Notes under the pieces: generated by a model
Databases searched by the model: none
What the model saw: the letters and a program-made list of their open reading frames with translations, nothing else
What the model was told of the DNA's origin: nothing
From: Candidatus Rokuibacteriota bacterium
GTDB taxonomy: Bacteria; Methylomirabilota; Methylomirabilia; Rokubacteriales; CSP1-6
Direction: 5' to 3'
NCBI GenBank assembly: GCA_003220685.1
Contig: QHTE01000048.1
Span: 95,029 to 159,028 of the forward strand
DNA: 64,000 bases
Made by a program: the position numbers and the translations under genes
Shown here: one piece after another, positions 40,813 to 64,000 of the stretch
How positions within the stretch are numbered: position 1 is the first letter of the stretch
Layout of the letters: each line of letters begins with the position of its first letter

Positions 40813-41096
40813 GTGCAATGGGGGCGCACCGTCACCGTGATCGGCTGCCACGTCGGCGGCGAGGACAACCACGTGATCGTCGGCGGCGTGCTGCCGCCGC
40901 CGGGCGCCACGATGTTCGAGAAGAAGCGCTACCTCGAGACGGAGCGATCGCCGCCGAGGTCGTCGTGGGCGGACGGCCGGGCATCGTCCCCACGATCGCC
41001 GGGCAGGCGTGGATCACCGGCGTCTTCCAGCACGGCTCCAACCCGTCCGATCCCTTCCGCCACGGCTTCACGTTGCCCGACATGTGGTTCGCCTGA
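40813..41096 (+). pseudogene. proline racemase/4-hydroxyproline epimerase family remnant (internal deletion plus frameshift)
   Basis: N-terminus 'TVTVIGCHVGGEDNHVIVGGVLPPPGATMFEKKRYLETE' matches the family 'IDSHTGGEPTR.V.GG' pattern. From about 40945 another frame reads 'AIAAEVVVGGRPGIVPTIAGQAWITGV...DPFRHGF..*' (the family C-terminus), with its stop at 41094-41096. Confidence 0.55.
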
Positions 41097-41112
41097 CCGA
41101 GGAGGATTTCGC

Positions 41113-42141
41113 ATGAGCACGCATCCGGCGCTGGACCTGTCCCACACGGCGATGAGCGAGGACGAGGCGCTGCGCTTCCTCGACGGCCATCGCATCCGCA
41201 TGGGGAGCCGCACGATGGACCCCAAGGCGCAGATCGTGGGCGAGTTCGTCAAGTCCATCCGCGTGCCGGGATACTATCCGCCGCTGCCCGAGCTCAGGCA
41301 GCAGCTCCGCGCGATGGTCAACTTGATGGACGAGCCCGCGCCCGAGCTGGCGCGGGTCGAGGACATCCGCATTCCCGGACCGGCCGGCGAGATTCCCGCT
41401 CGCTTCTATTCGTCGACCGCCGCGAAGACGCGGGAGCCGGCCGTCGCGTACTTCCACGGCGGCGGCTGGGTGCAGGGCGATCTCGAGACCCACAACGGGC
41501 TCTGCGCGCGGCTGGCCAAGCACGCTCGTGTGCTCGTCGTAGCCGTCGACTATCGGCTGGCGCCCGAGAACAAGTTCCCGGCGGCGGTCGAGGATTGCTT
41601 CGCCGCGTATCGCTGGCTGCGCGAGAAGGGCCGCGACCTCGGCGCCGACACCGCGCGCATCGCGGTGGCCGGCGATTCGGCCGGCGGCAACCTCTCCGCC
41701 GTCGTCTCGCAGCTCGCCGCGTCGGCGGGCATGCCGGTGCCGACGTGTCAGGCGCTCATCTATCCGGCCGTCGACGCCTCGCTCGAGACGGACTCGCACC
41801 GTGAGCTGGTCGACGGGCACGTGATCCCGCGCGAGCGCATCATCTGGTACATGCAGCAGTACCTGAGGAGCGACGCGGACCGGGCCGACTCGAGGTGCTC
41901 TCCGCTCCGCGCGGCGAGCCTCACGGGCCAGCCGCCGGCCATGATCGTCACCGCCGGCTTCGACCCACTCCGCGACGAGGGTCGGGCGTACGGAGAACGG
42001 CTGCGCGAGGCCGGCGTAGACGTCGTCTACCGCGAGTATCCCGGCCAGATCCACGCGTTCGTGTCGCTGACGAAGGCGATCCCGCAGGGCATGGCCTGCA
42101 CGCTCGAGATCGCTGACTTCCTCCGCCGGCGTCTGGGCTGA
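41113..42141 (+). CDS. alpha/beta hydrolase fold-3 esterase/lipase (HSL family)
   Basis: 342 aa from MSTHPAL with a GAGGAGGA RBS. 'YFHGGGW' oxyanion motif, 'GDSAGGN' nucleophile elbow, and 'DPLRDEG..' plus 'HAF' for the acid and His. Confidence 0.85.
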   Translation: MSTHPALDLSHTAMSEDEALRFLDGHRIRMGSRTMDPKAQIVGEFVKSIRVPGYYPPLPELRQQLRAMVNLMDEPAPELARVEDIRIPGPAGEIPARFYSSTAAKTREPAVAYFHGGGWVQGDLETHNGLCARLAKHARVLVVAVDYRLAPENKFPAAVEDCFAAYRWLREKGRDLGADTARIAVAGDSAGGNLSAVVSQLAASAGMPVPTCQALIYPAVDASLETDSHRELVDGHVIPRERIIWYMQQYLRSDADRADSRCSPLRAASLTGQPPAMIVTAGFDPLRDEGRAYGERLREAGVDVVYREYPGQIHAFVSLTKAIPQGMACTLEIADFLRRRLG

Positions 42142-46744: not shown

Positions 46745-47308
46745 ATGAACGCGACCCCGACGTTCGGACGCTACGCCGAGATTCCCGTCGACCAGATGAC
46801 CGCCGAGCAGAAGGACGGCTACCGCTTCCTGGTCGACGGCCCGCGCGGCCGCCTGCCGGGCCCGTACAAGGTGTGGGTCCACAACCCGAAGCTGCTTCGC
46901 GCCGCCGCCCCGCTCGGCGAGCATTTCACGCCCGGCAAGTCGACGTTGACCGAGCGCGAGCGGGAGATCGCGGTGATCGTGATCACCAGCAAGTGGAATT
47001 CGGCCTATCCCGCCGCCGCCCACGAGAAGCGCGGCAAGGAGGTCGGCCTGCCCGCGCCGGCGGTGGAGGCGATGATGGCGGGCCTTCCAGCGTCGTTCGC
47101 GGATCTGCGCGAGCAGGTCGTCTACGAGCTGGCGACGACGCTCGCCAACGGGCGGTTGCTCTCTCAGGGGCTCTACGACCGCGCGGTCAAGGCGCTCGGC
47201 CACGAGAGCATCACCGACGTGGTCGTGCTGATGGGCTACTACACGGCCGTCTCGCTGACGATGAACGTCTACGCCGTACCGGCTGGAGCTCCCGGCCTGG
47301 CCCGCTGA
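46745..47308 (+). CDS. carboxymuconolactone decarboxylase (CMD/AhpD-like) family protein
   Basis: 187 aa. 'LTEREREIAVIVITSKWNSAYPAAAHE' is typical of the CMD family. Confidence 0.8.
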   Translation: MNATPTFGRYAEIPVDQMTAEQKDGYRFLVDGPRGRLPGPYKVWVHNPKLLRAAAPLGEHFTPGKSTLTEREREIAVIVITSKWNSAYPAAAHEKRGKEVGLPAPAVEAMMAGLPASFADLREQVVYELATTLANGRLLSQGLYDRAVKALGHESITDVVVLMGYYTAVSLTMNVYAVPAGAPGLAR

Positions 47309-47326: not shown

Positions 47327-47701
47327 ATGATCGAATACCGGCTCGACGCCGCGCGCTCGATCGTGTACGTGAGGCCCAAGTCAGCGCTCGAGCGCGACGA
47401 CTTCGTGAAGCTGGCGCGAGCAGTCGATCCGCACATCGAAGCGACGGGCGGGCTCGCCGGGCTCATCATCGAGATCTCCGCGTTTCCCGGCTGGGACAGC
47501 CTCGGCGCGATGGCGGCCCACTTCCGCTTCGTACGAGACCATCACGAGCGCATCCGCAAGGTCGCCGTCGTGACCGACTCCCCGCTGGGTGCCGTCGCGG
47601 AACGTCTGGCATCCCACTTCGTGTCGGCGGAGATCAGGCATTTTTCGGCTGGACAGGTCGAGGCCGCCAAGCAGTGGATCCTGGCTTCAGCGCGACCCTA
47701 G
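47327..47701 (+). CDS. STAS/SpoIIAA-like (DUF3478-type) protein
   Basis: 124 aa. 'LIIEISAFPGWDSLGAMAAHFRFVRDHHERIRKVAVVTDS' matches the SpoIIAA-like family as I remember it. Confidence 0.7.
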   Translation: MIEYRLDAARSIVYVRPKSALERDDFVKLARAVDPHIEATGGLAGLIIEISAFPGWDSLGAMAAHFRFVRDHHERIRKVAVVTDSPLGAVAERLASHFVSAEIRHFSAGQVEAAKQWILASARP

Positions 47702-49399
47702 GTCTCGCTCGGCGTCCATCAGAAGGTCGTCGAACGACGACGGCACCTCGACAGTGCGCCCGACGACGCCGGGGCTGTAGCCCTGGAGCCAGTAGCTGTT
47801 GGTCGGGTGCCCGCCGCCCGCGACGACGACGATGAAGTTGTCGGGGCTGGCGGTGATCGGCCAGGGATCGAGCGCGATGCTTTCACGCACGACCTTGCTC
47901 GCGTCGATCTCGAGCCACGCCGGGCAGCCGGCGCGGCGTAGCTGCTCGGTCGGGATGCGCGAGTGCTCCCACAGGAACTCGCGGATCGCCGCCTTCGTCC
48001 AGCCGAGGCCGGCCATCGTGTTCGCCACGACGCCGGGGAGCATCAGGATGCCCGGCGTGCCGTGCTCGTAGCCCGCGAGGCCGGGCATGTTGGGCACGCG
48101 CATGAAGTCGGCCATGCGGTACATGCCCTGCAGCGCGTCTTCTTCCGGGGTTTCCTTCTTCGCGCCGCGCCGGCGGATGTTCGTGGCGCCGTTGGCGAAC
48201 GCGAGCGAGATCGAATGCTGACTCCGCGCGAAGGCGTGGCGCTCGGTCCCGTGCGGCGCCCAGCCCGGCGGAAGATTCGCTTCGTCTTCCGCGAAGACGA
48301 CGTTCGTGTACCGCACGCCGCCGTAGTTGGCCATGGTGCCGATGCCGGGCAGGGCGCCGCCGACGTTCTGCTGCAGGAGCCGCAGCGCGCGGCCGATGCT
48401 GGCGCCCGCGGGCCGCTGCGGGTCCGGGCCGAGGCAGCCGAAGCCGGCGTTCAGCCGGATCTGGGCGCCGATGGGGCCGTTGACGATCACCACCGGGAAG
48501 GCGCTGCCCGACGCGGCCTGCAGCTGCGCGCTCCCTGACGCCGGATCGAGGAACGCGTCGACCGCGGCCACGAGCACCGGCAGATACTCGGGCCGCCCGC
48601 CCGACATCGCCAACGCGATCGCGCAGGTCTCGATCGTGGTCACGCCGCCGCGGGGCGGGAAGATGCCGATCCGTCGTGAGCGCGGCTGCGTCGCGCCGCG
48701 AAGGATCCAGTCCACTCGCTCGCGCGTCGGGGGCCAGAGCGGAAGCCCGTCGCCCCAGCGATTCGCGAGCATCAGGTTGTTCGCTCGCGCGAAGGCCTCG
48801 TCCATGCTCGCGCCCCGAACCTTGATCGGCGGCGCCTCGGCCGCGCCGGCGCCGCCGAGGGTCGAGCGCCAGCGCGTGAGCCCGTCGTAGAACTCGCGCT
48901 TGCGCGCCTCGACCGGGGAGATATCGCTCCCGGGCAGGAACATCTCGATGGGGAAGGTGACCATCGCCGCGTCGGGCGCCAGGCCGAGCCCGGCCACCGC
49001 GTTCGTCATGACCCCGACGAAATCCGCGCGGGTCAGGGTGACGGTTGGAATTCCCAGCGCTTCGAGCCTAGCGGCCGCCCGGCCGCATGCAGTGGCGCAG
49101 GACCCTCAGGCCGCGTTGCCGATGATGACGGCGTCGACCCCACTCTGCTTGACCTGCGCGGCCGTCTCCTCCGAGCCGATCACCGCGTTGCCCTGCGGGA
49201 AGGCGTCGAGCGGCAGCACCTCGATGCCCGCGAAGTCGGCCTCGAGCAGCTGTTTCAGGAGCGGCAGCATGCGGTACGCCTGCCACTGATCGTTGCTGAC
49301 GAAGCCGATGCGCTTGCCCTCGAGGGCGGCGACGCGCGGGGCAAATGGCTGCTTCACCTCGATCGCGCCTGACGGATCGTGGAACTCGAGCGTGACCAT
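47687..49399 (-). CDS. selenoprotein: GrdB C-terminal-like 'UGSC' Sec domain (UGA-Sec at 49106-49108) fused to a ~380-aa domain of unknown function
   Basis: ORFs 49106..49399 and 47687..49009 are in one frame with no stop in the 96 nt between them. Read-through gives 'GVDAVIIGNAA-U-GSCATACGRAAARLEALGIPTV', parallel to this window's GrdB 'GVDAVILTST-U-GTSTRCGAAITRELERAGLPTV'. GGGGGA RBS precedes ATG 49399. Confidence 0.65.
49071..49086 (-). promoter_or_regulatory. candidate SECIS-like stem-loop downstream of the UGSC UGA
   Basis: Sense strand GCGGCC-GGGC-GGCCGC begins 20 nt 3' of the UGA at 49106-49108. Its position fits a bacterial SECIS, but the structure was not modelled. Confidence 0.3.
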
Positions 49400-49417
49400 G
49401 CGCTTGTCCCCCTTGGG

Positions 49418-50566
49418 CTACCGCTTGATCTTCAGGAGCTTCGCCGCCGTCTCCCCCAGCATCGCCCGCCGATCGGCATCGCTGAAGCCCGGCGCTTTCA
49501 GGATGTGGTCGATCGACTTGTCCTGCCACGGGATCGGATGGTCGGTGCCGACGACGAGCTGGCTCACGCCGACTTCGGCGGCCAGATGACGCAGCGCCTC
49601 GGAGGTGAAAACCAGGGTGTCGTAGTACATCGTCTTCAGATACTCGGTCGGCTTCTTCTTCAGCTTGATGCCCGTGTCCATGTCGGGCGCGACGCGCAGG
49701 CTGTTGTCCGAGCGCGCGGCGTACGACGGCAGGTAGCCGCCGCCGTGGGCCGAGCAGATCTTGAGGCCGGGGAACCGATCGAGCGTGCCCTCGAAGATCA
49801 GGTGCGAGAGCGCGATCGTGGTGTCCAGCGGGTTGCCGATCGTGTTCGCCAGCCAGCCGTTGCCCTTGAGCCGCGTGGCCAGGTCCGGCGTGCTCTGCGG
49901 ATGGATGAAGATCAGGACGCCGAGCTGCTCGGCCTTGGCCCAGAACGGATGGAACTTCGGGTCGGAGAACTCATCGCCGGCGACGCTCGCGCCGACGGCG
50001 GCGCCGCGCAGGCCGAGCTTCTTCACGCCCTCCTCGAGCTGCTGCACCGCGAGGTCCGGGAACTGCAGGGCGACGGAGGCGAACGCGACGAAGCGATCCG
50101 GATACTTTCCGCAGAACTCGGCGAGCCGCTCGTTCTGGATCTTGACCACCTGGGTCGCGAGGTCGCGCTCGGCCCGATACCACGCCGGGTTGATGCTGAG
50201 CGCTTCCATGTCGATGCCCTGGGCGTCCATCTCGCGGATGCGCCGGGGGCCGACCTCGTTGATCCCGGGCCCACGGTGGTCTTGCACCTTCAGCCCCAGC
50301 AGCGCGTACGCCTCGGGGATCACGCAATGGGCGTGCACGTCGATCGTCTTCACGCGGCGTCCGCCGACCACGACTTCGCGGCGCCGACCGGTCATCGCCG
50401 TCGCCGGGCTCGACTGGCCCGATTTCGGGCGCGCTTTGCCCCGCGTGGCGGCGGGCGCCTTGGCCCGAGCTCGGGCGCGCGCCGCACCGAGCAGCTCGCA
50501 CTCGATGAAGGCGATGTCAGCCATGACGCCGGCGGTACTGCTGTCGAACGCTGTCCGCGTGCTCAT
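49418..50566 (-). CDS. amidohydrolase-2 family protein (ACMSD-like metal-dependent hydrolase/decarboxylase)
   Basis: 'KTIDVHAHCV', 'FIHP', 'ICSAHGGG' and 'LVVGTDHP' match the PF04909-type barrel. The N-terminal ~55 aa are low-complexity, so the true start may be the internal ATG near 50395. Confidence 0.8.
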   Translation of the reverse strand: MSTRTAFDSSTAGVMADIAFIECELLGAARARARAKAPAATRGKARPKSGQSSPATAMTGRRREVVVGGRRVKTIDVHAHCVIPEAYALLGLKVQDHRGPGINEVGPRRIREMDAQGIDMEALSINPAWYRAERDLATQVVKIQNERLAEFCGKYPDRFVAFASVALQFPDLAVQQLEEGVKKLGLRGAAVGASVAGDEFSDPKFHPFWAKAEQLGVLIFIHPQSTPDLATRLKGNGWLANTIGNPLDTTIALSHLIFEGTLDRFPGLKICSAHGGGYLPSYAARSDNSLRVAPDMDTGIKLKKKPTEYLKTMYYDTLVFTSEALRHLAAEVGVSQLVVGTDHPIPWQDKSIDHILKAPGFSDADRRAMLGETAAKLLKIKR

Positions 50567-50622
50567 CGCTATCCCCCCAGGAGCAGTTTCGGCTGCAAGC
50601 GCGGCCTATCATAGTGCATCGC

Positions 50623-51921
50623 TCAGCCCTCGCGTCGTCCCGAGTGCGGCGGCATGGCGAGCTCCGCCGGCTTGCGCCGGCAGACGTCGACGGCGGTCAC
50701 CGCCAGCACGCGCGTGACCCTTTCCATCTCGCTCACGAGCACGCACGCGTCGTCCTCGTCGGCGTTGCCGCGAATCGTCGCGGGGCCGTAGAGCAGACAC
50801 GGGATGCCGGCCTTCCAGAGGTGGCACGTGTCGTCGGCGCTGTACGAATGCGGCAGCACGGCGCCGATGGCCTTCGGCTCCTGGCCCGTCACGGCGCGAT
50901 AGCTCCGCGCCACCGCCTGCACGATTGGCGCGTCGGTCGGCATGTCGAACGGATCCATGACGAGGCGCCGGCGCCCCTTGAAGCTGGCCGGCGGCGGAAT
51001 CTCGATCTCGTAGCGGAGATCGGGATCGAGCGCCGCGACCGGATCGAGCGCGCGGCGGATGTCGGCGACGATGCCGTCGACGGTTTGCCCCGGCACGAAG
51101 TGAACGTCGACCAGGATCGTGCACAGATCGGGCACGTACGGCGGCTCGACGAGCACGTAGTCCCGGCCGCGTCCGCCGAGGACGCTGCCGACGTTGAGCC
51201 GCGGGAACGCGGGGAGGTCGGGCCGCGGCGTGTGGCGAAACTCGACGTGCTCGAGCGCGCGGACGATGGCCGTCATCTTCTGCACCGCGTTCACCGTGCC
51301 CTCGAGGCGTCCGATGTGTCCGGTTACTCCGTAGGCATGGATCGCCATGTGCGCGATGCCCGAGTGCACCGTGACGAGGTTGTCGGCGCCGAACGGCTCG
51401 GCGACCACCGCGGCGTCGGTGCGCAGGCCGCTCTGCATCAGGTAGTGCGTGCCCTCGCCGCCTTGCGTCTCGCCCGCGACGCACGCGACGACGAGATCGC
51501 CGGCGCGCCGGACGCCGGAGCGCCGAACGGCCTCGGCGGCCATGATGATGCTGGCCAGGCCGCCCTTCATGTTCTGCACGCCGTGGCCGTACAGGCGGTC
51601 GCCCTCGAGGCTCGGCGTCCACGGGTCTCGCCTCCACCGGCGGGTGAGGGCGTTGATATCCGTGTGGCCGTTGAGCATGAGGCTCGCCCCGCCGCCGGTA
51701 CCCCGCAAGGTGGCGATCGTCTGCAAGCGCCCGGGCTCGATCTCTTGCAGGTCGACGTCGTAGCCGCGGCGGCGGAAGAAATCCTCCAGGAACCGGGCAA
51801 CGGGCGTCTCTTCGGTCTTGAAGCTCGGGATGCGAATGAGATCGCTGGCGAGATCGATCAGCTCGCGCCGACCGACGCGCGCCAGCACGGCGTGCATCGG
51901 CGCATCCATCGCCTGACTCAC
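50623..51921 (-). CDS. M20 family metallopeptidase/deacylase (ArgE/DapE-like)
   Basis: 432 aa. 'LMLNGHTDI', 'GHGVQNMKGG' and 'VAGETQGGEG' are M20 motifs. Confidence 0.85.
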   Translation of the reverse strand: MSQAMDAPMHAVLARVGRRELIDLASDLIRIPSFKTEETPVARFLEDFFRRRGYDVDLQEIEPGRLQTIATLRGTGGGASLMLNGHTDINALTRRWRRDPWTPSLEGDRLYGHGVQNMKGGLASIIMAAEAVRRSGVRRAGDLVVACVAGETQGGEGTHYLMQSGLRTDAAVVAEPFGADNLVTVHSGIAHMAIHAYGVTGHIGRLEGTVNAVQKMTAIVRALEHVEFRHTPRPDLPAFPRLNVGSVLGGRGRDYVLVEPPYVPDLCTILVDVHFVPGQTVDGIVADIRRALDPVAALDPDLRYEIEIPPPASFKGRRRLVMDPFDMPTDAPIVQAVARSYRAVTGQEPKAIGAVLPHSYSADDTCHLWKAGIPCLLYGPATIRGNADEDDACVLVSEMERVTRVLAVTAVDVCRRKPAELAMPPHSGRREG

Positions 51922-51934
51922 CGGCCAGCGCCGA

Positions 51935-53185
51935 TCAAACGAAGGTGAGCGGCTCGACGTGGGCTTCGCCGCGCGCGAAGCGGCCGATGTCGAGCGGGCC
52001 GGCGTCCATCGTCACGGCGTGGCCGTGGGCGAGCATCTCGGCCATCAGCTGCCCCGCAATCGGGCCGTGCATGAAGCCGTGGCCGCTGAAGCCCGCGATG
52101 ACGTGCAGGCCCGTGACGCCGGGCACGGCGCTGACGATGCCGGTCTGGTCCGGCGTCATCTCGTAGAGGCCGGCCCACGCGCGCATCAGCTCGGCGTCGG
52201 CGAGGGCCGGCGCGCGGTGAATCGCGCGCTCGATCAGCGCGGGCTCGAGGCTCCGGTCGATCTCGGTGCTGAAGCCGTCGGGCTCGTCGCGCCGTCCGTG
52301 GCCGAGCAGGAGCCCGGGCCCCTCGCGGCGCAACGAGAAGTTCGTGTGCGGGTCGATGATGAACGGCGTGGCGGCCGGGATGCGTGAGGCCGGGAACGGT
52401 GCGGTCATGAACTTGTGGCGCCGGTGGGGGCTCACGGGAATGTCGACGCCGGCGAGCCGGCCGACCACGCCCGACCAGGCGCCGGTCGCGATGACGGTGG
52501 CGCGCGCCTCGAAGGTCCCGGCCGCGGTGGTCACGCCGCGCACGCTGTCGCCGTCCCGCAAGAAGCCGTGCACCTCGTGCTGCTGCTTGATCGTCACGCC
52601 GAGATCCCGCGCGCGCGCCGCGATCGCGGTCGCGCAGAGATACGGGTCGGCGTAGCCGTCGCGCGGCGTATAGGTGGCCCCGAGCAGATCGTCGGTGTTG
52701 AGATAGGGGCAAAGCGCGCGCGTCGCCCCGGCATCGAGCAGCTCGACGCGCACGCCGAGGCTCCGCTGGAGCCCGACGCTGCGTCGCGCGACCGCCAGCT
52801 CCGGCTCGCTCCCGATCAGGATCAGGTAGCCGTGCTGACGGAAGTTGGGATCGACGCCGAACTCGTCCTTGAAGCGCTCGTAGGTGACGATGCTGTGCGT
52901 CGTCAGCTCGATGCCCAGCCGGTTCGCGTACTGGTGGCGGATGCCGCCGCTCGCGAGCGCCGTCGAGCCGGAGCAGACGGTGTCGCGCTCGAGCACGGTC
53001 ACCGGGCCCACGCCCAGGCGGGCCAGATGGTACGCGGTGCTCACGCCCATGATGCCGGCGCCGACGATCACGACTTCCGCGGTGTGCGCCACGCCGCCAC
53101 CATACGGCAAGCGCGAGCCGGGCTCAACCCGATCGGCTTGAACCGGCGCGGCAAGACGGCGATCATGGCCCGGCGAGGAGGGCAC
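51935..53185 (-). CDS. FAD-dependent oxidoreductase (DAO family; sarcosine oxidase beta / D-amino-acid dehydrogenase-like)
   Basis: Rossmann motif 'VVIVGAGIMGVSTAYHLA' and C-terminal 'GFSGHGFMHGP'. The start is uncertain: ATG 53185 lies 5 nt from the divergent amidase, and GTG 53092 is the alternative. Confidence 0.8.
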   Translation of the reverse strand: MPSSPGHDRRLAAPVQADRVEPGSRLPYGGGVAHTAEVVIVGAGIMGVSTAYHLARLGVGPVTVLERDTVCSGSTALASGGIRHQYANRLGIELTTHSIVTYERFKDEFGVDPNFRQHGYLILIGSEPELAVARRSVGLQRSLGVRVELLDAGATRALCPYLNTDDLLGATYTPRDGYADPYLCATAIAARARDLGVTIKQQHEVHGFLRDGDSVRGVTTAAGTFEARATVIATGAWSGVVGRLAGVDIPVSPHRRHKFMTAPFPASRIPAATPFIIDPHTNFSLRREGPGLLLGHGRRDEPDGFSTEIDRSLEPALIERAIHRAPALADAELMRAWAGLYEMTPDQTGIVSAVPGVTGLHVIAGFSGHGFMHGPIAGQLMAEMLAHGHAVTMDAGPLDIGRFARGEAHVEPLTFV

Positions 53186-53190
53186 CCGAG

Positions 53191-54588
53191 ATGGCGACGA
53201 TCGATCCTGTCTGGGCCACGGTATCGGAGCTGTCCCGCGCGTTCGAGGCGCGTACGCTTTCCCCGGTCGATGCCGTCGGGGCGCTGCTCGAGCGGATCCG
53301 CCGGCGCGATCCGGCGCTGCACGCGTTCATCGCAGTCTACGACGCCGACGCGCGGCTCGCGGCCGAGGCCGCCGACAAGGCCATTCGATCGGGGCATCGC
53401 ATCGGACCGCTTCACGGCGTCCCGATCGCGCTGAAGGACCTCGTCGACCTCGAGGGTCGCGTCACCACCGGCGGGTCGAAGGTGTGGGCCGAGCGCGTGT
53501 CGCCGACGACCGCCACGTTGGCGCAGCGGCTCATGGCCGCCGGGATGATCGTGCTCGGCAAGACGCACACGGTCGAGTTCGCCATGGGGAGCTGGGGGAC
53601 CAACACGCACATGGGCACACCGCGCAACCCGTGGGACCTCGCGGTGCATCGCACGCCGGGCGGCTCGTCCAGCGGCTCGGGGGTCGCGGTCTCCGCCGGT
53701 CTGGCGCCCGTCGCGATCGGCACCGATACGGGCGGCTCCGTCAGGATTCCCGCGGCGTGGTGCGGCATCGTCGGCCTGAAGGTGACGGCCGGCCGGATCA
53801 GCACGTACGGCGTCCTGCCGCTCAGCTCGACGCTCGATACGCCCGGCCCGCTGGCGCGCTCGGTCGAGGACGCGGCGCTGATCTACCGGGCGCTCAGCGG
53901 GCCCGACCCGCGAGATCCGCAGACGCTCGCGTGGACTCCGGTCGATCCGCTACCCGCGTTGCGCCGCGGCGCCGCGGGATTGCGTCTCGCCGTCTTGCCC
54001 GACGCCGAGCGCACGGGTGTCGAGAAGGAAGTGCTGGCCGCGTACGAGGCCGCGGTCGGCGCGCTCGCCGGGCTCGGAGCCCAGATCGTCCGCGTCGAGT
54101 TTCCCCGCCGCCTGAGCGACTACGCCAAGGCGACGGGCACGATCATCGGTGCCGAGGGCTATCGCTTCGTCGGTCACCTGGTCGACGACCCGGCGCTGCC
54201 GACGGACCCGCACGTGCGACCGCGCATCCAGCTCGGTAAAGCCATCTCGGCGCGCGACTACTTGCTGGCGCTGGCGCAGCGCGAAGAGGACAGGCGCGAG
54301 TTCGCCGCGGCGCTCGGCGGCGTCGACGCGATCCTGACGCCGACCGCGCAGACCGCGGCGATTCCCATCGATCGCGCCGACCAGTCGGGCACGGCAGCCC
54401 ACTTCACGCGGCCGGGCAACTATCTCGGCCTCTGCGGTCTGGCGATCCCCAGCGGCTTTTCGACGGACGGCCTGCCGCTCTCGCTCCAGATTCTCTGCCA
54501 CGCCGGAGAGGAAGCGACGGCGCTGCGCATCGGCTGGGCCTACGAGCAGGCCACGAGCTGGAAGGCGCGCCGGCCGCCGGAGCCGTGA
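53191..54588 (+). CDS. amidase (amidase-signature family, GatA-like)
   Basis: 465 aa. 'GVPIALKD' and 'GGSSSGSGVAVSAGLAPVAIGTDTGGSVRIPA' give the Ser-cisSer-Lys signature. Confidence 0.9.
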   Translation: MATIDPVWATVSELSRAFEARTLSPVDAVGALLERIRRRDPALHAFIAVYDADARLAAEAADKAIRSGHRIGPLHGVPIALKDLVDLEGRVTTGGSKVWAERVSPTTATLAQRLMAAGMIVLGKTHTVEFAMGSWGTNTHMGTPRNPWDLAVHRTPGGSSSGSGVAVSAGLAPVAIGTDTGGSVRIPAAWCGIVGLKVTAGRISTYGVLPLSSTLDTPGPLARSVEDAALIYRALSGPDPRDPQTLAWTPVDPLPALRRGAAGLRLAVLPDAERTGVEKEVLAAYEAAVGALAGLGAQIVRVEFPRRLSDYAKATGTIIGAEGYRFVGHLVDDPALPTDPHVRPRIQLGKAISARDYLLALAQREEDRREFAAALGGVDAILTPTAQTAAIPIDRADQSGTAAHFTRPGNYLGLCGLAIPSGFSTDGLPLSLQILCHAGEEATALRIGWAYEQATSWKARRPPEP

Positions 54589-58081: not shown

Positions 58082-58549
58082 TCAGGCCGTCGCGCCGGCG
58101 CGCCGCGCTTCGCGCAGGCCCGCGAGGATCGCCTCGCGGTCGAGGCTCATCTCCATCAGCGCGACCTGCGCCTCGTACACGTCCGCCGGCACCTGGTCGC
58201 GTACTTCCGGCTCGAACACGTGAAACACGGGGAGCCCCAACGGGACTCCGGCCAACGGGCCCGCGTAGGAGGGATCGCCGGCGACGACGGTCTGGGCGAG
58301 CGTCTGCGTGCTCTCGGCATCGGGCGTGCCGAGAAGGACCACCACGCCATTGCCGTGCTCGTCAGCGACTCGCTTCACCGCCGCCTGATCCTCCAGGCCC
58401 ATGGCGCCCGCCGCGGTTCAGACGTAGCAGGCGGTCAGGGTCAGCACCACCTCGGCGCCCGCGCGACTGGCGCACTCCGCCACCGCGGGGCCCGGCACGC
58501 CGTCGCGCTCACCGAGCGCGATGACCTTCTTGCCTCGAAGTTCCATCAT
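58082..58549 (-). CDS. grdA: glycine/sarcosine/betaine reductase complex selenoprotein A (UGA-Sec at 58418-58420)
   Basis: ORFs 58418..58669 and 58082..58402 are in frame. The joined product '[80 protein letters not shown]' matches GrdA, including the CxxU motif. AAAGGAG RBS. 155 aa. Confidence 0.85.
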
Positions 58550-58712
58550 GTGGCTCCTTTCTAATGGGGGACCCGCGAGGGGTCCCCCATACCCCTCCAC
58601 GCTCGCCAGCGCCCCGGCGGAGCCGTGGCGCTGGGCCTTTCTAGATGGGGGACCTAGACGGGTCCCCATACCCCTCCACGCTCGCCAGCGCCCCGGCGGA
58701 GCCGTGGCGCTG
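58550..58712 (-). repeat. tandem direct repeat (84 + 79 nt) of a two-hairpin element between grdC and grdA
   Basis: Units are 58550-58633 and 58634-58712, with a ~49-nt core that looks identical on reading. Each unit has the hairpin CAGCGCC-N13-GGCGCTG plus a second hairpin: ATGGGGGACCC-CTCGC-GGGTCCCCCAT (perfect 11 bp) in the grdA-proximal unit, bulged in the other. Each unit ends in TAGAAAGG. Confidence 0.8.
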
Positions 58713-58730: not shown

Positions 58731-60203
58731 TCACGTGCTGCCGGCGTTGCGCTCCAGGACGAGGGAGAGCCCGTCCGGCAGCTGCGTCATGCGTCCCAGG
58801 AACAGACTACCCTTGCCCGCGAACATCGTGCGCGTGAGGCGGCCCTCGGTGAGCGCGCGTCGCGCGTGACCGAGATACGGGATCGCCGAGGCGATGTGGC
58901 CCTGGGTCGGCGAGAAGCCCGGCATGCCCCGCGCGCGGACGAAGTCGTCGATGCTCTCGCGCGCGATCAGCTTCTCGACCACGGCCAGGCTCGCCAGGGT
59001 GCGGTAGTTGTTGAGCGGGACGTTGCCGCTCCCCGCGGGCTCGGTCGCCTCGGGGTTGTGTAGCTCGAGCGAGAACCGGTCCACGTCGAGCAACGTCAGT
59101 CCCACGCGGCCGAGCGGCTCGCTGTAGAGCGCCTTCATGACCGCGAGCGGCGCCGAGCCCGAGGCGACCTCGTGGCGGCCGATCGCGTCGAGCCGCAAGG
59201 TGGGCGAGACGCCGTCGTCGCGCGAGACGTGCGCGGCGAAGCCGGCGAGCACGTCCTCGACGATTGGCATCGCGTGCTTGACGTGCCCCTGGAATTTCAT
59301 CCCGAGCTTCGCCAGCGAGCCACCCGCCAGGACGACCACGTCGTCGTGCAGGCCGCTGCGGACCAGGGCCCCGGCCAGCATCAACGCGTGCATCGGCCCG
59401 CTGCAGAACGCCTTGACATCGCTGCCGGTCGCGCGGCCGCAGCCTGCCCATTCGGCCACCGCCTTGGCGACGTTGCCGCCGCCGCGCTGGTAGCGATCGC
59501 CCACCGCCTCCTCGCCGCAATTGATGACGTAGCGGACGTCGGCGGACGCGATCGCCCCGGGTCGCGCGAGCAGGTGACGCAGCGCCAGCGCCGCCGTTGC
59601 CTTGCACGCGAGATTCTCCAGCAACACCTGGCCGGTGAGCGTGTCGTCCTCGTCGTGCCCGGGCAGCATGGCGCCGAGGAGCCGGCCGTCCGCGCCTACG
59701 ATTCGCAGCGCGCGGTGCCGCTCGACGCGCTCCTCGAGCACGGCCGCGGTGACGCCGGGCGGTACGGTCGGGCTGCCGGCGGCGCGACCGATGACCGGGT
59801 GCGCGTCGAGCGCGCTTCGCGCGCGGTCGGCCAGCTCGCGGTCGAGCCCGAGCAGCTGGAAGCCGTCGCAGGCGGCCAACAAGCCGAAAAACTCGTCCTC
59901 GGGCATGATCTCGCCGTCGGGACCGAAGCGCGCCGCCCTCTCGATCGGATGACGATGCCAGGGAGTCGGCCGCGCCGCGAGCTCGTCCACCCCCATGTTG
60001 CCGATGAACACCTGGTTCGGCGCGTAGGCCTGCGCGACGTCCCAGGCGCGCAGATGCGGTCGCAGGAAGTCGATCGGGTCGTGCACCTCGCGCAGGACCC
60101 GCAACGGCTTGGAGCCGAGCCGGACGAGGCTCGGCACGTGCGCGAGCACGAGCGAGACCGCGCGAATGACGGGCATCCCGTCCGACGTCACGCGAGGCAT
60201 CAT
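58731..60203 (-). CDS. grdC: glycine/sarcosine/betaine reductase complex component C, beta subunit-like (thiolase-like fold)
   Basis: About 490 aa. '[24 protein letters not shown]' resembles the GrdC N-terminus as I remember it. '[15 protein letters not shown]' is a thiolase-like Cys region. ATGATG at 60198-60203 overlaps the araC stop; ATG 60176 is an alternative start. Confidence 0.8.
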
Positions 60204-60976
60204 ACCCTCTGGCTGGCTCGCAGCGCACGATAGCGCGCGGGTGTCAGCCCGAAGGCGGACTTGAACGCGCGGGTGAAATGCGCCTGATCGGCGAAGCCGG
60301 CGTCGCACGCCACCTCGACCAGGGCCCGCCGCCGGTGGATCAGCTCCCGCGCCAGGTCGAGCCGCCGCATGAGCAGATACCGGTACGGGCTTGTGCCGAA
60401 CATCATCCGGAACTGGCGGGCCAGATCGTAGCGGGTCAGTCCCGTAACGGACTCCAGCTCCGCCGAACGCACGACCCGAGTTCTCTCGGCGTCGAGGAAG
60501 CGGCGAGCGCGCTCGAGGGCGGCGGCATCGACGCGCCGCGAGGCTCGGGATGGCTGTCCCCCGCGTTCGGCGGCGAGCAGGCCTTCGGCCAGATCGACGA
60601 CGAGGCCGTCCACCGCCAGGGGCTCCGTCGGGAGTCGGAAGGTGGCGTCAATGGCGTGGGCCAACCTCGCGCTCGTCGACACCGGATCGCCCACGAACGG
60701 CAGCGGGCAGGCGCGGCCGCGGAGCGTTCGCAGCGCTTCGGCGAGCTGCGAGGGCTCCACGTAGACGATCCGATAGCCGAACCCCTCGGCGGTGCCGGCG
60801 CGGCCGTCGTGGGCCTCGTCCGGGTACAGCACGGCGACCTGGCCCGGCAGGCACGCCCGCGCCGCGCCCCGATAGTCGAAGACCTGGACGCCGCTGTCGG
60901 TCAGGCCGATCGCGTAGGTATCGTGACGATGCTTCTCGTATGCCCGGCCGGCGAACCACGCGCGGAACAGCTCCAC
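60200..60976 (-). CDS. AraC family transcriptional regulator (AraC_N-like sensor plus HTH_18)
   Basis: C-terminal 'LTRYDLARQFRMMFGTSPYRYLLMRRLDLAR..L....VACDAGFADQAHFTRAFK' is the AraC HTH. N-terminal 'GVELFRAWFAGRAYEKHRHDTYAIG'. Start placed at GTG 60976; GTG 61075 is possible. Upstream ORF-track residues are junk. Confidence 0.8.
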   Translation of the reverse strand: MELFRAWFAGRAYEKHRHDTYAIGLTDSGVQVFDYRGAARACLPGQVAVLYPDEAHDGRAGTAEGFGYRIVYVEPSQLAEALRTLRGRACPLPFVGDPVSTSARLAHAIDATFRLPTEPLAVDGLVVDLAEGLLAAERGGQPSRASRRVDAAALERARRFLDAERTRVVRSAELESVTGLTRYDLARQFRMMFGTSPYRYLLMRRLDLARELIHRRRALVEVACDAGFADQAHFTRAFKSAFGLTPARYRALRASQRV

Positions 60977-61064
60977 GCCCTCGGCCGGCCTGGCGCTGGC
61001 GATCCAGCCGCCGATCGGGTCCCCGCAAGATCGTTCAAGACCCGCGCCGCCCGATCTGGTCTCC

Positions 61065-61685
61065 TTGGTAGGCACTGGAGACAAGAGTACGACTACGGAG
61101 CAACTCGTCGCGTTCCTTCTCTTCGCGGTGGTGGCCGCGGTCACGCCCGGCCCCAGCAACATCATGGTGACGGCCGCCGGGGCGAACGCCGGCCTCCTCA
61201 AAGGGCTTCCGTGCCTCTTGGGTGTCGCGACCGGCATGGGGCTCATGATGTTTCTGGTGCCGCTGGGGCTGGGGAGCGTCGTCCTCGGCCATCCCCTCGT
61301 GCTGAAGACGCTCAACTGGGGCGGCGCGGCGTTCCTGCTCTGGCTCGCGTGGAGGATCGCGACCTCGATCGGTCTCGAAACGACTCGAGAGCCCCAGCCC
61401 GTCGGCTATTTCAAGGCTGCGGCTTTTCAGTGGGTGAACCCGAAAGCGTGGCTCGTGAGCGCGAGCGCGGCGGGAACGTTTCTCAGCGCGGGGGCGGGGA
61501 GCCCGGTCGTGCAGTCCGTCTATCTCGGCGGGCTGTTCTTCCTCGCGGCGCTGCCGAGCTGCTTCGTGTGGCTGGCGTTCGGCGCCACGGTCCAGCGCAT
61601 GCTCCGGAGCCCGCGCCGGCTCCGGGCGTTCAACGTCGCGATGGGGGTGCTCCTCGCCGTCTCGATCGTCCTCATCGCCGCGTAG
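61065..61685 (+). CDS. LysE/RhtB family amino-acid exporter
   Basis: 206 aa from TTG. 'LLFAVVAAVTPGPSNI' is the LysE N-terminal motif, with about 6 TM segments. Divergent from araC. Confidence 0.8.
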   Translation: MVGTGDKSTTTEQLVAFLLFAVVAAVTPGPSNIMVTAAGANAGLLKGLPCLLGVATGMGLMMFLVPLGLGSVVLGHPLVLKTLNWGGAAFLLWLAWRIATSIGLETTREPQPVGYFKAAAFQWVNPKAWLVSASAAGTFLSAGAGSPVVQSVYLGGLFFLAALPSCFVWLAFGATVQRMLRSPRRLRAFNVAMGVLLAVSIVLIAA

Positions 61686-62379
61686 ACTCGCGGCCCCCCT
61701 CGCGAGTCTCCACCGGGCTCTGACCGGCGCTCGTCGCCGTCTCGGGCGCCAGCGGAATGACACCGCCCGGCTCGCCGGCCAGGATCCAGTCGATGAGCAG
61801 GCGATAGCGGTCCGTCGGCACGGCGCCAACCAGCGAGAGCTTCTCGTTGAGGACGACCGTCGGCAGGCCGGACACGCCGAACCACGCGGCACCCTCGGCG
61901 CAGTCCCGCAGCACGGCCTCGTACGCCTCGCCGGCGTAGTCGGCCTCGAAGCGCGCCGGATCGAGCGCGGTCTCGCGGAGAAGGGTGCGCAGCACCTCGG
62001 GGCGCGAGATGTCGAGGTTGTCGCGAAAATGCGCGGTGAAGAGGCGCTCGTGAAACCGTTCGAACGCGGCTTCGCCCTGGAGCTCGGCGCACTTGGCGGC
62101 TGTCAGCGCCGGGACGCTCGAGGACGGCAGCGGGGTGTCGATCGCCGGCGGGACGAAGAACGCGCGCGGCTCCTCGGCGCCGACGCGCTGCCGGCCCTCG
62201 CGCGTCTTCTGCGTGACGCGCCGGTCAGGCTGCTCGCCGGGAATCAGCGGGAAGGTCCGCCAGTGGAGCCTGACGCGCTCGCCGTAGGCCCGCTGGATCT
62301 CGCGAAGCCGCACCGCGGCGTTGTAGCACCAGGGGCACAGGTAGTCGGAGAAGACGTCGAGCCGGACGGGTGCCGTCAT
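61672..62379 (-). CDS. DsbA/FrnE-like thioredoxin-fold oxidoreductase (CPWC active site)
   Basis: 235 aa. 'LDVFSDYLCPWCYNA' N-terminal motif. The ATG overlaps the grdB stop (ATGA at 62376-62379). Confidence 0.8.
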   Translation of the reverse strand: MTAPVRLDVFSDYLCPWCYNAAVRLREIQRAYGERVRLHWRTFPLIPGEQPDRRVTQKTREGRQRVGAEEPRAFFVPPAIDTPLPSSSVPALTAAKCAELQGEAAFERFHERLFTAHFRDNLDISRPEVLRTLLRETALDPARFEADYAGEAYEAVLRDCAEGAAWFGVSGLPTVVLNEKLSLVGAVPTDRYRLLIDWILAGEPGGVIPLAPETATSAGQSPVETREGGRESTRR

Positions 62380-63695
62380 TCGCGCCCGAACACCGTGGGT
62401 TTCGCGACCTCGGTCCGGAGCGCTTGCAGCGCCTGCTCGACGATGCGCCGCCGCAGCGCCTTCTCGTCCTCGGGCGAGAGGTCCGCGCTGCCGAGCGGAT
62501 GGATGATGCCCGCGGCGGACACGATGCGATTGGCGCCGACCATTACCGCGACCGGCGTCATGGTCGAGACCTGCACCGTCGGCAGCCCCGCCCGCTCGAG
62601 CTCTCGCGTGATCGCTGCGCCGCAGCGAGTGCTGGTGCCTCAGGTGGAGGTGAGGATGACGGCGTCGACGCCGGCCGCGCGCAGCTTTTCCGCGATCTCG
62701 CGGCCCATGCGCGCGCTCTGGGCGAGCGTGGTCGCGACGCCGACCGTTGAGTAGATGGTTTCATGCAGCTTGCCGATGGCGCCGCTCTGCTCCAGCTCGC
62801 GGGCGACGTCGACCGGGACCAGACGGTGCGGATCCTGCTTCACCCAGGTCGTGTCGTAGCCGCGATGAGGATTGTCGTACTGGGCCGCGTCGAGGCTCGA
62901 CTTGCCCTCGATGCTGTAGGCGCCGTAGCGCGTCGCGTTCAGCGCCTCGATGCCGTCGGGGTTGCCGCGCGGGACCAGGCCGCCGTCGGTGACGAGCGCG
63001 ATCGTCGCGCCGGCGAGCGTCTTGACGAGCCGCGGCGCGGCGACGGGCGGAAACGCCGGTCTCGGGACCTCGGTCGTGAAGGCGCGGCCGGCCAGCTTGT
63101 CGAGCAGCATCGCGACGGCGCGGTCGGCGGCGTTGGCGCCGGCGACGATATTGCGCGTCACACCGCGGGCGAAATATCCGTGAGCTGCCGGGGCGCCGAT
63201 CGCCTCGCCGCGGGCGAGCTTCAGCCCGAGCGCGACGAGCCGCTGCACTTCCGGGAGCATGCGCGTGGCCTCCGCGCCGGTCTGGACGACGTAGACCTGA
63301 CGGCGGTAGAGCTCGACGCCGGGATTCTCGGCGTGCATGCCGGTGACGGTCGGAATCTTCAGCTCGGCCTGCGCGGCGGCGCAGAGCGCGCCGCACGCGA
63401 CGCCGTAGCGGCCCGCCAGGAACGCGGGCCCCGCGACCAGCAAATCGGGGCGCGCCGCGGCGACCAGCGCGACCAGCTCGGTGGTCGCGCGCTCGGCCTG
63501 CTCGGCGGCGTAGTTGTCGCCACAGATCACCGTCGCGACGACCGTGCCCGCGTCGCCGAGCGCCTGCTGAACGGCCCGCGCGGCGCCGATGGCGCCGTCG
63601 ACCACCTGCGGCCCGACGCCGGCTTTGTCCTCGCCGCCGAGCTGGCCGAAGAACTGGTTGAGGTAGCAGACAACCCGCAAGGTCTCAGCTGCCAT
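62376..63695 (-). CDS. grdB: glycine/sarcosine/betaine reductase selenoprotein B-type subunit (UGA-Sec at 62640-62642)
   Basis: ORFs 62640..63698 and 62376..62576 are in frame with no intervening stop. 'LRVVCYLNQFFGQLGGEDKAG' at the N-terminus and '..AVILTST-U-GTSTRCGA..' match GrdB. About 439 aa. ATG 63695 overlaps the upstream stop (TGATG); GTG 63698 is an alternative. Confidence 0.85.
62612..62628 (-). promoter_or_regulatory. candidate SECIS-like stem-loop downstream of the grdB UGA
   Basis: Sense strand TCGCTGC-GGC-GCAGCGA (7-bp stem) begins 12 nt 3' of the UGA at 62640-62642. Not modelled energetically. Confidence 0.3.
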
Positions 63696-64000
63696 CACCG
63701 CACCTCCGCCATCACTCTGGTCGCCCCGACCTGCTCGATCGCGCCGCAGAGCCCGCCGTAGGTGGCGCGCGTCTCGCCCAGGAGCTTCGACGCGAGATCG
63801 TCGGCGCCGATCACGCGGTCCATCGCCGGCAAGGTGATCGGCTCCTGGCTGCTCCCGACGTTCACCAGCGCGTCGACTCCCGGAAAATCGAAGAGCAGCA
63901 TGCCCTCCGCGCTACCGTCGGTCGACATGTCCTCGACGACGGCCGTCGTCTTGACGCCGAGGGCTTCGCACTGCGCGGCCGCCTGCGCCATGTCGACGTG
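63695..64000 (-). CDS. grdE: glycine/sarcosine/betaine reductase component B proprotein (GrdE/GrdG/GrdI-type), C-terminal part; continues beyond the window
   Basis: The frame is open to the window end. '..QCEALGVKTTAVVEDMSTDG...VNVGSSQEPITLPAMDRVIG' resembles the GrdE-family C-terminal region as I remember it ('..CKALEEAGIKTV...GNANEVITLPPMDKVIG'). Its stop overlaps the grdB start. Confidence 0.65.
   Translation of the reverse strand, partial: HVDMAQAAAQCEALGVKTTAVVEDMSTDGSAEGMLLFDFPGVDALVNVGSSQEPITLPAMDRVIGADDLASKLLGETRATYGGLCGAIEQVGATRVMAEVR

Follow-up and report, generated by a model that had tools for sequence, protein, structure and literature searches.

A UGSC-family selenoprotein from Rokubacteria predicted to join a GrdB-like selenocysteine module to a conserved partner domain

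UGSC proteins have been counted since 2007-2008 among the environmental selenoproteins of greatest abundance, and they are still without a function. The stretch of DNA considered here (hereafter the window) comprises 64,000 nucleotides (nt) of contig QHTE01000048.1 from Candidatus Rokuibacteriota bacterium (assembly GCA_003220685.1, positions 95,029 to 159,028 of the forward strand), has a G+C content of ~70%, and carries a gene for a 570-amino-acid (aa) protein of this kind, in which an N-terminal UGSC domain is fused to a large C-terminal domain (hereafter the C-domain; Table 1). The gene is the last of four open reading frames (ORFs) on the minus strand, preceded by genes for a flavin adenine dinucleotide (FAD)-dependent oxidoreductase of the DAO family, an M20 deacylase and an Amidohydro_2 enzyme, and a first-pass annotation of the sequence had placed all four in a single reductive pathway. 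The four ORFs are found at the coordinates given there, with recomputed gaps of 13, 56 and 18 nt, and so is the divergent amidase gene at 53191 (PF01425); profile searches bear out its family labels at the superfamily level. In the called frames, the G+C content at third codon positions (GC3) is 0.91-0.93, as in real genes of this genome.

Table 1. Features of the window referred to in the text, with positions counted from its first nucleotide
Feature	Position	Strand	Evidence	Remark
570-aa selenoprotein, N-terminal UGSC domain fused to C-terminal domain	47687-49399	minus	translation, GC3, homologues	
C-terminal domain, aa 185-570	47690-48847	minus	homologue clusters, AlphaFold2 (AF2) model	without curated family; conserved UGSC partner
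UGSC domain, aa 7-151	48947-49381	minus	PF24696, 77.3 bits	GrdB/PrdB-type selenocysteine (Sec) module
Hairpin like a Sec insertion sequence (SECIS), GCGGCC-GGGC-GGCCGC	49071-49086	minus	fold and synonymous-site conservation	+23 to +38 from U of UGA
UGA codon 98, read as Sec	49106-49108	minus	codon conservation across loci	motif U98-G-S-C101
Amidohydro_2	49418-50566	minus	PF04909, 121 bits	lineage-specific upstream neighbour, 18 nt from UGSC start
M20 deacylase, ArgE/DapE family	50623-51921	minus	profile search	lineage-specific neighbour
FAD-dependent oxidoreductase, DAO family, sarcosine-oxidase-beta-like	51935-53185	minus	PF01266, 238 bits	lineage-specific neighbour
Amidase-signature gene	53191-54588	plus	PF01425, 345 bits	divergent from DAO
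GrdA selenoprotein	58082-58552	minus	NF040748, 194 bits	TGA 58420-58418; CYV-U-TAAGAMG
GrdC-beta	58731-60308	minus	NF040746, 585 bits	
GrdB-family selenoprotein	62376-63698	minus	TIGR01918, 516 bits; PF07355, 453 bits	TGA 62642-62640; VDAVILTST-U-GTSTRCG

Codon 98 of the UGSC gene (49108-49106) is an in-frame TGA in the motif NAA-U-GSC, set in an otherwise continuous frame of 570 codons with a GC3 of 0.92-0.93 on either side. Of 83 loci compared, 80 from species-representative genomes and three from metagenomes, 82 have TGA at the homologous position and one has TGT, for cysteine (Cys), and the TGA persists down to 68% protein identity in two phyla, in Rokubacteria/Methylomirabilota and Burkholderiales. 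A database search with the UGSC protein retrieved more than 2,100 relatives, mostly 440-aa fragments that begin right after the TGA, together with full-length homologues of 575 aa that are 63-65% identical across the whole query and read CGSC, with Cys at the U position.

The SECIS-like hairpin begins 22 nt after the UGA and has a G in its loop. By z-score, the minimum free energy of the region after the UGA does not differ significantly from a background of 70% G+C; because the folding energy of the hairpin is unremarkable at such G+C, synonymous-site conservation was used instead, over 233 codons with a conserved amino acid in 79 distinct genes. Among these degenerate codons, invariant third bases occur only at codons 98, 101, 105 and 106, the last two of which lie in the 5' arm of the stem; in the loop and beyond the stem, third bases are free to vary (entropy 0.9-1.8 bits). 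The stem sequence is conserved in the 79 genes and, being invariant, offers no compensatory covariation; a GCC-to-GUC change (Ala to Val) in ten sequences keeps the stem pair as G-U. Rfam and tRNA scans of the window gave no match, neither to tRNA-Sec nor to a curated SECIS. Since GrdA-type and GrdB-type genes with in-frame TGA codons lie in the same window, the organism decodes Sec. The in-frame TGA of the UGSC gene is a genuine Sec codon, and the earlier description of this gene as a real selenoprotein gene is upheld by the conserved TGA, the Cys of full-length homologues and the constrained hairpin. It was also observed that the Cys-form (CGSC) fused homologues P0014, P0049, P0081 and P0056 (575-580 aa) all end in a tail D-I-G-C-x4-C-Q-[IV] with two Cys, which is missing from the Sec forms (the window protein ends DLGSR) and may act as a compensating redox relay.

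The UGSC domain scores 77.3 bits against Pfam PF24696, well above the gathering cutoff of 25, and 49.1 bits against NCBIfam NF041046, below the equivalog cutoff of 125; the Cys-form fused relative P0199 reaches 119.8 bits against the latter model. The window protein is therefore a divergent, fused member of the known UGSC selenoprotein family. With that family (PF24696/NF041046) it shares the U-G-S-C motif, the in-frame TGA, the existence of Cys-containing homologues and the lack of an assigned function; the family is abundant in non-marine metagenomes. The window protein differs by an added C-terminal extension of ~420 aa. A fusion of UGSC with a domain called 'Unknown_1' was mentioned in the Global Ocean Sampling (GOS) selenoproteome (Zhang & Gladyshev 2008, PMC2398784), and 'Unknown_1' is probably the C-domain of the window.

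The C-domain (~390 aa) belongs to no Pfam (at E<=10) or NCBIfam family and has no sequence match in the PDB, and PDB sequence-profile searches with the full-length and UGSC alignments returned noise only. Its relatives form 3,343 clusters (50% identity) at E<1e-3 and 1,954 at E<1e-10. These occur fused to UGSC in Sec and Cys forms, very distant ones included, as stand-alone 'hypothetical proteins' of ~350 aa (4,848 matches at E<1e-10), duplicated in tandem with no UGSC domain present (P0181, 717 aa), and, in P0247 (494 aa), fused to a C-terminal FtrB-like domain (PF02943, with a weak match to NF041072) instead of UGSC. Because FtrB takes the place of UGSC in P0247, the C-domain seems to need a redox partner module. 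The FtrB family (NF041072, 'FtrB family double-selenoprotein') is thus linked to the window protein through the same C-domain, but the latter has no FtrB domain, and FtrB is attached to the opposite end of the C-domain. Even the most distant members retain without exception a set of residues that are polar or structural, none of them a Cys: the Asp of DGLP, the Thr of PPT, NGP, the Arg of IGRA, AE-x-E and P-W-x-P. Conservation of the Cys in GCLGP does not extend beyond the subfamily of the window.

Where the C-domain stands alone, a UGSC gene is usually beside it. In L085 and L086/L087, a small UGSC gene split by its TGA lies directly upstream of a stand-alone C-domain. The pairing was sampled in 80 metagenome loci seeded on the stand-alone C-domain, eight of which lie on contigs too short to judge. 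Among the 72 assessable loci, 64 have an adjacent UGSC gene on the same strand (64/80 in all), 41 of them upstream and 23 downstream of the C-domain with gaps of 17-476 nt, and in the other eight no UGSC was found within 600 nt. Of the UGSC genes in the 64 pairs, 51 have TGA and 6 have Cys. From the side of UGSC, 159 of 160 domain matches in the DNA examined have a same-strand C-domain within 700 nt, in a sample biased by the seeding. The pair was found in Rokubacteria/Methylomirabilota, Burkholderiales, Chloroflexi, Nitrospinae and Actinomycetota. By these gene arrangements UGSC and the C-domain, whether fused or encoded by adjacent same-strand genes, appear to be a conserved functional unit, and the window gene is the fused form of this two-part unit. 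The first-pass annotation had taken the C-terminal 420 aa for an appendage; they are instead the only partner whose association with the Sec module is conserved (64/72 loci).

The nearest detectable relative of the UGSC domain is encoded in the same window. In a BLASTP comparison, UGSC residues 77-134 align with residues 333-389 of the GrdB-family protein at 42% identity over 59 aa (E 2e-7), Sec on Sec. In hhalign, a profile built from 18 diverse UGSC domains matches GrdB residues 341-427 at 85.6% probability (E 5.6e-6, 84 columns, the HPLG motif included), and a UGSC hidden Markov model (HMM) built here matches the GrdB of the window independently at 19.7 bits. Calling the Sec module 'GrdB-like', as had been done from the sequence, is justified by this Sec-on-Sec homology. 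What is shared with GrdB/PrdB (PF07355, TIGR01918) is the region around the Sec, with the pattern VDAVI-x3-U-G-[ST]-x-x-x-CG ... G-[IL]-PTV ... HPLG; the Sec follows a beta-strand in both, and in both a second polypeptide or domain works with the Sec module. On the other hand, the UGSC protein has no counterpart of the ~340-aa N-terminal part of GrdB; its partner is a domain unrelated to GrdB (hhalign probability of the C-domain against the GrdB N-terminal region, 0.6%), and not recognisable as a pyruvoyl proprotein (GrdE/PrdA, PF09338) in a Pfam scan at E<=10; and its gene is usually not beside grdA or grdCD. The UGSC protein has no match to TIGR01918. Because the N-terminal ~340 residues are missing and the family model is not reached, the UGSC domain is not a member of the selenoprotein B family; the alignments show it to be distantly related to the C-terminal, Sec-bearing part of that protein, of which it is a minimal version.

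Structure models were made for both parts. For the whole protein, a natural Cys form 65% identical to the window protein was modelled, and Foldseek found no match to the full-length model at E<=1e-3; its N-domain (model pLDDT, the predicted local distance difference test score, 68) gave weak Rossmann/flavodoxin-like matches at E >= 4e-3, and no thioredoxin (Trx) fold was among the top 50. The UGSC N-domain is a small alpha/beta module with Sec98 in a U-x-x-C motif. The Trx-like fold suggested for UGSC in the literature contrasts with the model and the homology found here, which point to a GrdB-type alpha/beta Sec module. The C-domain was modelled with AF2 from the window sequence and an alignment of 130 sequences. 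Modelling this domain had been suggested by the first-pass annotation, and it yielded a confident model (pLDDT 90.4, predicted template modelling score (pTM) 0.92) with no fold match: a Foldseek search against 350,542 PDB chains found nothing similar (best E 2.2, template modelling (TM) score <=0.15).

The explanation that we consider best, and hold with moderate confidence, is that the gene encodes a genuine two-domain selenoprotein, a conserved UGSC/C-domain pair, with selenol chemistry like that of GrdB/PrdB by analogy. D-proline reductase holds its substrate on one subunit, and the PrdB selenol attacks the alpha-carbon of that substrate, so that the C-N bond is cleaved (PMC11229817). By analogy with PrdA/PrdB and GrdE/GrdB, the large C-domain would bind and position a small-molecule substrate, and the U98 selenolate would attack it, resulting in reductive cleavage or reduction. 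C101 could then resolve the adduct as a selenenylsulfide, and the enzyme would be re-reduced by an external dithiol system or, in some relatives, by a ferredoxin-linked FtrB module. Substrates probably differ between subfamilies, as is suggested by the transporter binding proteins and catabolic neighbours, which differ between lineages. A two-part selenol reductase in the style of GrdB/PrdB is our best guess at the function. More tentatively, UGSC and its partner might represent an unrecognised class of two-part selenoenzymes, in which a minimal GrdB/PrdB-type module sits on a catalytic domain without a solved fold relative that replaces the pyruvoyl subunit; in aerobic bacteria of soil and freshwater, such a class would reductively cleave bonds in small molecules of various kinds.

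A number of points weigh against this explanation. The proposed mechanism rests on analogy, no cofactor site is evident in the UGSC/C-domain protein, and the C-domain has no invariant Cys. At the motif, some relatives read UGSS or have neither Cys nor Sec, and the resolving-Cys step is therefore not universal. The homology between UGSC and GrdB spans only ~85 residues, and the UGSC protein has no HMMER match to the GRDB model PF07355 even at E<=10. The full-length model of the Cys form is only moderate (pLDDT 68, pTM 0.69). The pairing counts were mostly seeded on the C-domain, and a reverse test seeded on UGSC alone, in which the C-domain was adjacent or fused in 3/3, comprises only three cases, one of them the isolate Yinghuangia seranimata, whose small protein is named 'UGSC family (seleno)protein' by NCBI. 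Finally, the UGSC protein still counts as uncharacterised in a 2026 review.

Among the alternatives, the least improbable, though still unlikely and for the most part refuted as a conserved pathway, is the original proposal that the DAO, M20, Amidohydro_2 and UGSC genes encode one catabolic pathway, in which the selenoprotein reductively cleaves the C-N bond of an N-substituted amino acid or amide. The four genes share a strand and are separated by small gaps, a Shine-Dalgarno-like GGGGGA lies 8 nt before the UGSC ATG, inside the 18-nt gap, and a gene for an SBP_bac_5 binding protein lies upstream of the nearby amidase gene; the homology of the Sec module to GrdB is also in line with the proposal. 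Scans for promoter and terminator consensus sequences found no sites, such scans being uninformative for this phylum; the lack of terminator-like sites accords with a single transcript, and co-transcription of the cluster in this genome is plausible from its layout. The DAO gene has sarcosine oxidase beta as its nearest NCBIfam model, with a score below the cutoff of that model.

The synteny test consisted of tblastn searches with the neighbour proteins of the window against the 80 species-representative genome loci, with 10-kb flanks each. The DAO-M20-Amidohydro_2 array adjoins the UGSC gene in 6/80 loci (L004, L005, L006, L018, L066, L071), all of them Rokubacteria metagenome-assembled genomes (MAGs) with a UGSC protein at least 90% identical to that of the window, and it was not found in Rokubacteria loci outside these close relatives. 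In the same six loci, unrelated flanking genes are also syntenic, namely those for the 187-aa protein described below, a histidine kinase, a ThuA-like protein, an isochorismatase, DUF1028 and an esterase, so the conservation of the array reflects recent common ancestry; synteny of the divergent amidase is likewise restricted to close relatives. Even there the junction can be broken, by one opposite-strand Uma2-family gene (PF05685, putative restriction endonuclease) between Amidohydro_2 and UGSC in L071 (9338-9925) and apparently by two in L005 (8764-9965), genes that are missing from the window.

At 84-87% identity the array is dispersed. A gene for a major facilitator superfamily (MFS) transporter separates Amidohydro_2 from UGSC in L009, L010 and L015; in three loci beyond the six, Amidohydro_2 is still within 4 kb; M20 alone adjoins UGSC in L016; and in L015 the DAO gene is 7 kb off, on the other side. 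In L001/L002 (84% identical by tblastn), the UGSC neighbours are ApbA, an M28 peptidase and TauD. A Cys-form gene lies alone between a carbon monoxide dehydrogenase-like operon and a luciferase-like monooxygenase. A nearby Amidohydro_2 gene, whether adjacent or set off by an inserted gene, is thus confined to Rokubacteria loci with a UGSC protein at least 84% identical, M20 is syntenic in seven loci only and DAO in six plus one displaced copy, and none of the three enzyme genes occurs in the ~55 Burkholderiales loci. The expectation that the four-gene neighbourhood would be conserved across genomes with UGSC proteins is not borne out, as the contexts elsewhere are unrelated (TauD, ApbA, TctC, CoA-transferase, DinB); such a lack of conserved synteny is what the first-pass annotation had itself named as refuting its proposal.

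De novo clustering of the neighbour ORFs of 168 loci revealed no universal third partner of UGSC, and no neighbour family was present in more than about one quarter of the loci. The commonest neighbours, TctC (39 loci), SDR (23), CoA-transferase III (17), TauD (16) and MmgE/PrpD (15), are generic catabolic families. RidA had appeared suggestive as a partner in three annotated loci, but it is adjacent in only 5 of ~170 and was rejected. These comparisons, made at the level of gene order, suggest that DAO, M20 and Amidohydro_2 represent a local, recent gene order of a narrow Rokubacteria lineage and no pathway tied to the selenoprotein, contrary to the first-pass annotation; a local, recent coupling of the cluster within this lineage is possible.

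Other features of the locus deserve mention. Downstream of the UGSC gene lie convergent plus-strand genes for a SpoIIAA-like protein, a 187-aa AhpD/peroxidase-related protein and a histidine kinase. The 187-aa gene (46745-47308, plus strand) has no Pfam match and a weak match to TIGR01926 ('peroxidase-related enzyme', AhpD/CMD-like); among the neighbours of the fused UGSC gene it persists the most, occurring in 14 loci, five of them in Betaproteobacteria at ~30% identity. The annotated start of DAO (53185) is only 5 nt from that of the amidase (53191), and it is probably miscalled, with the true start ~30 codons downstream, since the Rossmann motif begins only at residue 38; such a start would free an intergenic promoter region of ~100 nt between the two genes. 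An Abhydrolase_3 esterase ORF (40813-42141, plus strand) opens with ~46 residues that show weak similarity to the proline racemase N-terminus (PF05544, 26.8 bits); this stretch could be left over from a fusion or reflect a start called too far upstream. In other genomes, two fused UGSC/C-domain paralogues lie within 10 kb of each other in five Burkholderiales loci (L059, L060, L072, L042, L056), and L170 (5001-6730) has a fused-type gene in pieces of 309 and 221 aa beside IS66 and rve transposase fragments, apparently a decaying copy.

It could also be that the protein is a generic Trx-like thiol/selenol oxidoreductase and the C-domain a dedicated protein substrate or scaffold and not an enzyme, which seems to us quite unlikely. 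The UxxC redox motif and the FtrB fusion in a relative fit such a role, and a Trx-like fold and a redox role for the fused domains were proposed in the GOS selenoproteome paper (PMC2398784). However, the modelled N-domain gave weak Rossmann/flavodoxin-like matches and no Trx fold among its top 50, its closest detectable relative is the Sec region of GrdB, and the conserved polar motifs of the C-domain and its thousands of diverged clusters are typical of an enzyme.

A further alternative, and a decidedly improbable one, starts from the Grd genes of the window. Together with the glycine/sarcosine/betaine-reductase set formed by the GrdA, GrdC-beta and GrdB-family genes, the UGSC gene brings to three the number of Sec genes that share a strand within 16 kb; neither a GrdE/PrdA-type proprotein nor GrdD was recognised in the window annotation. 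The UGSC fusion could then be an alternative, substrate-specific 'protein B' feeding the GrdA/GrdC machinery encoded 9-11 kb upstream on the same strand, a notion favoured by the presence of these three genes, by the homology of the UGSC Sec module to the GrdB C-terminus, and by locus L009, where GrdA and GrdC lie ~6-8 kb upstream of the UGSC gene. Against it, GrdA and GrdC occur within +-10 kb of UGSC in only two of ~170 loci, the window and L009, the flanks of the closest relatives being too short to tell, and many Burkholderiales, Chloroflexi and Actinomycetota loci have the UGSC/C-domain pair and no Grd genes nearby. In this lineage the UGSC gene may be linked to the Grd genes close by, but no such link holds generally. 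Beside these genes, it was noted that a DsbA-like thioredoxin-fold gene (61672-62379, minus strand) starts 1 nt after the stop codon of the GrdB-family gene, which suggests that the two are translationally coupled, and that an AraC-type regulator ORF (60200-61315, minus strand) overlaps the start of the grdC-like ORF by ~100 nt, so that one of both starts is miscalled.

The chance that the TGA is a true stop and that the locus consists of a 97-aa and a 440-aa gene, or is a pseudogene with parts of these lengths, as public gene callers split it and as the 440-aa database entries would have it, is negligible, because a nonsense mutation would not be expected at one codon in 82 of 83 loci, homologues have Cys there, the coding signal runs on in frame past it, RNA-level constraint lies directly downstream, and the window has two further Sec genes, GrdA and GrdB.

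The four-gene cluster itself is an ordinary lineage-specific gene order, a recent local arrangement that should not be used for inferring the chemistry of the selenoprotein. What is new concerns the UGSC family: its Sec module apparently descends from the GrdB/PrdB type, and it has an obligatory, large and well-folded partner domain that is missing from Pfam, NCBIfam and the PDB. If true, the two-part selenoenzyme class would assign a role to a selenoprotein family that is among the most abundant of the orphans. Moreover, the cultivable Cys-form carrier Yinghuangia seranimata makes expression and structural work feasible without Sec insertion, and a long-orphan, abundant selenoprotein family thereby becomes experimentally approachable.

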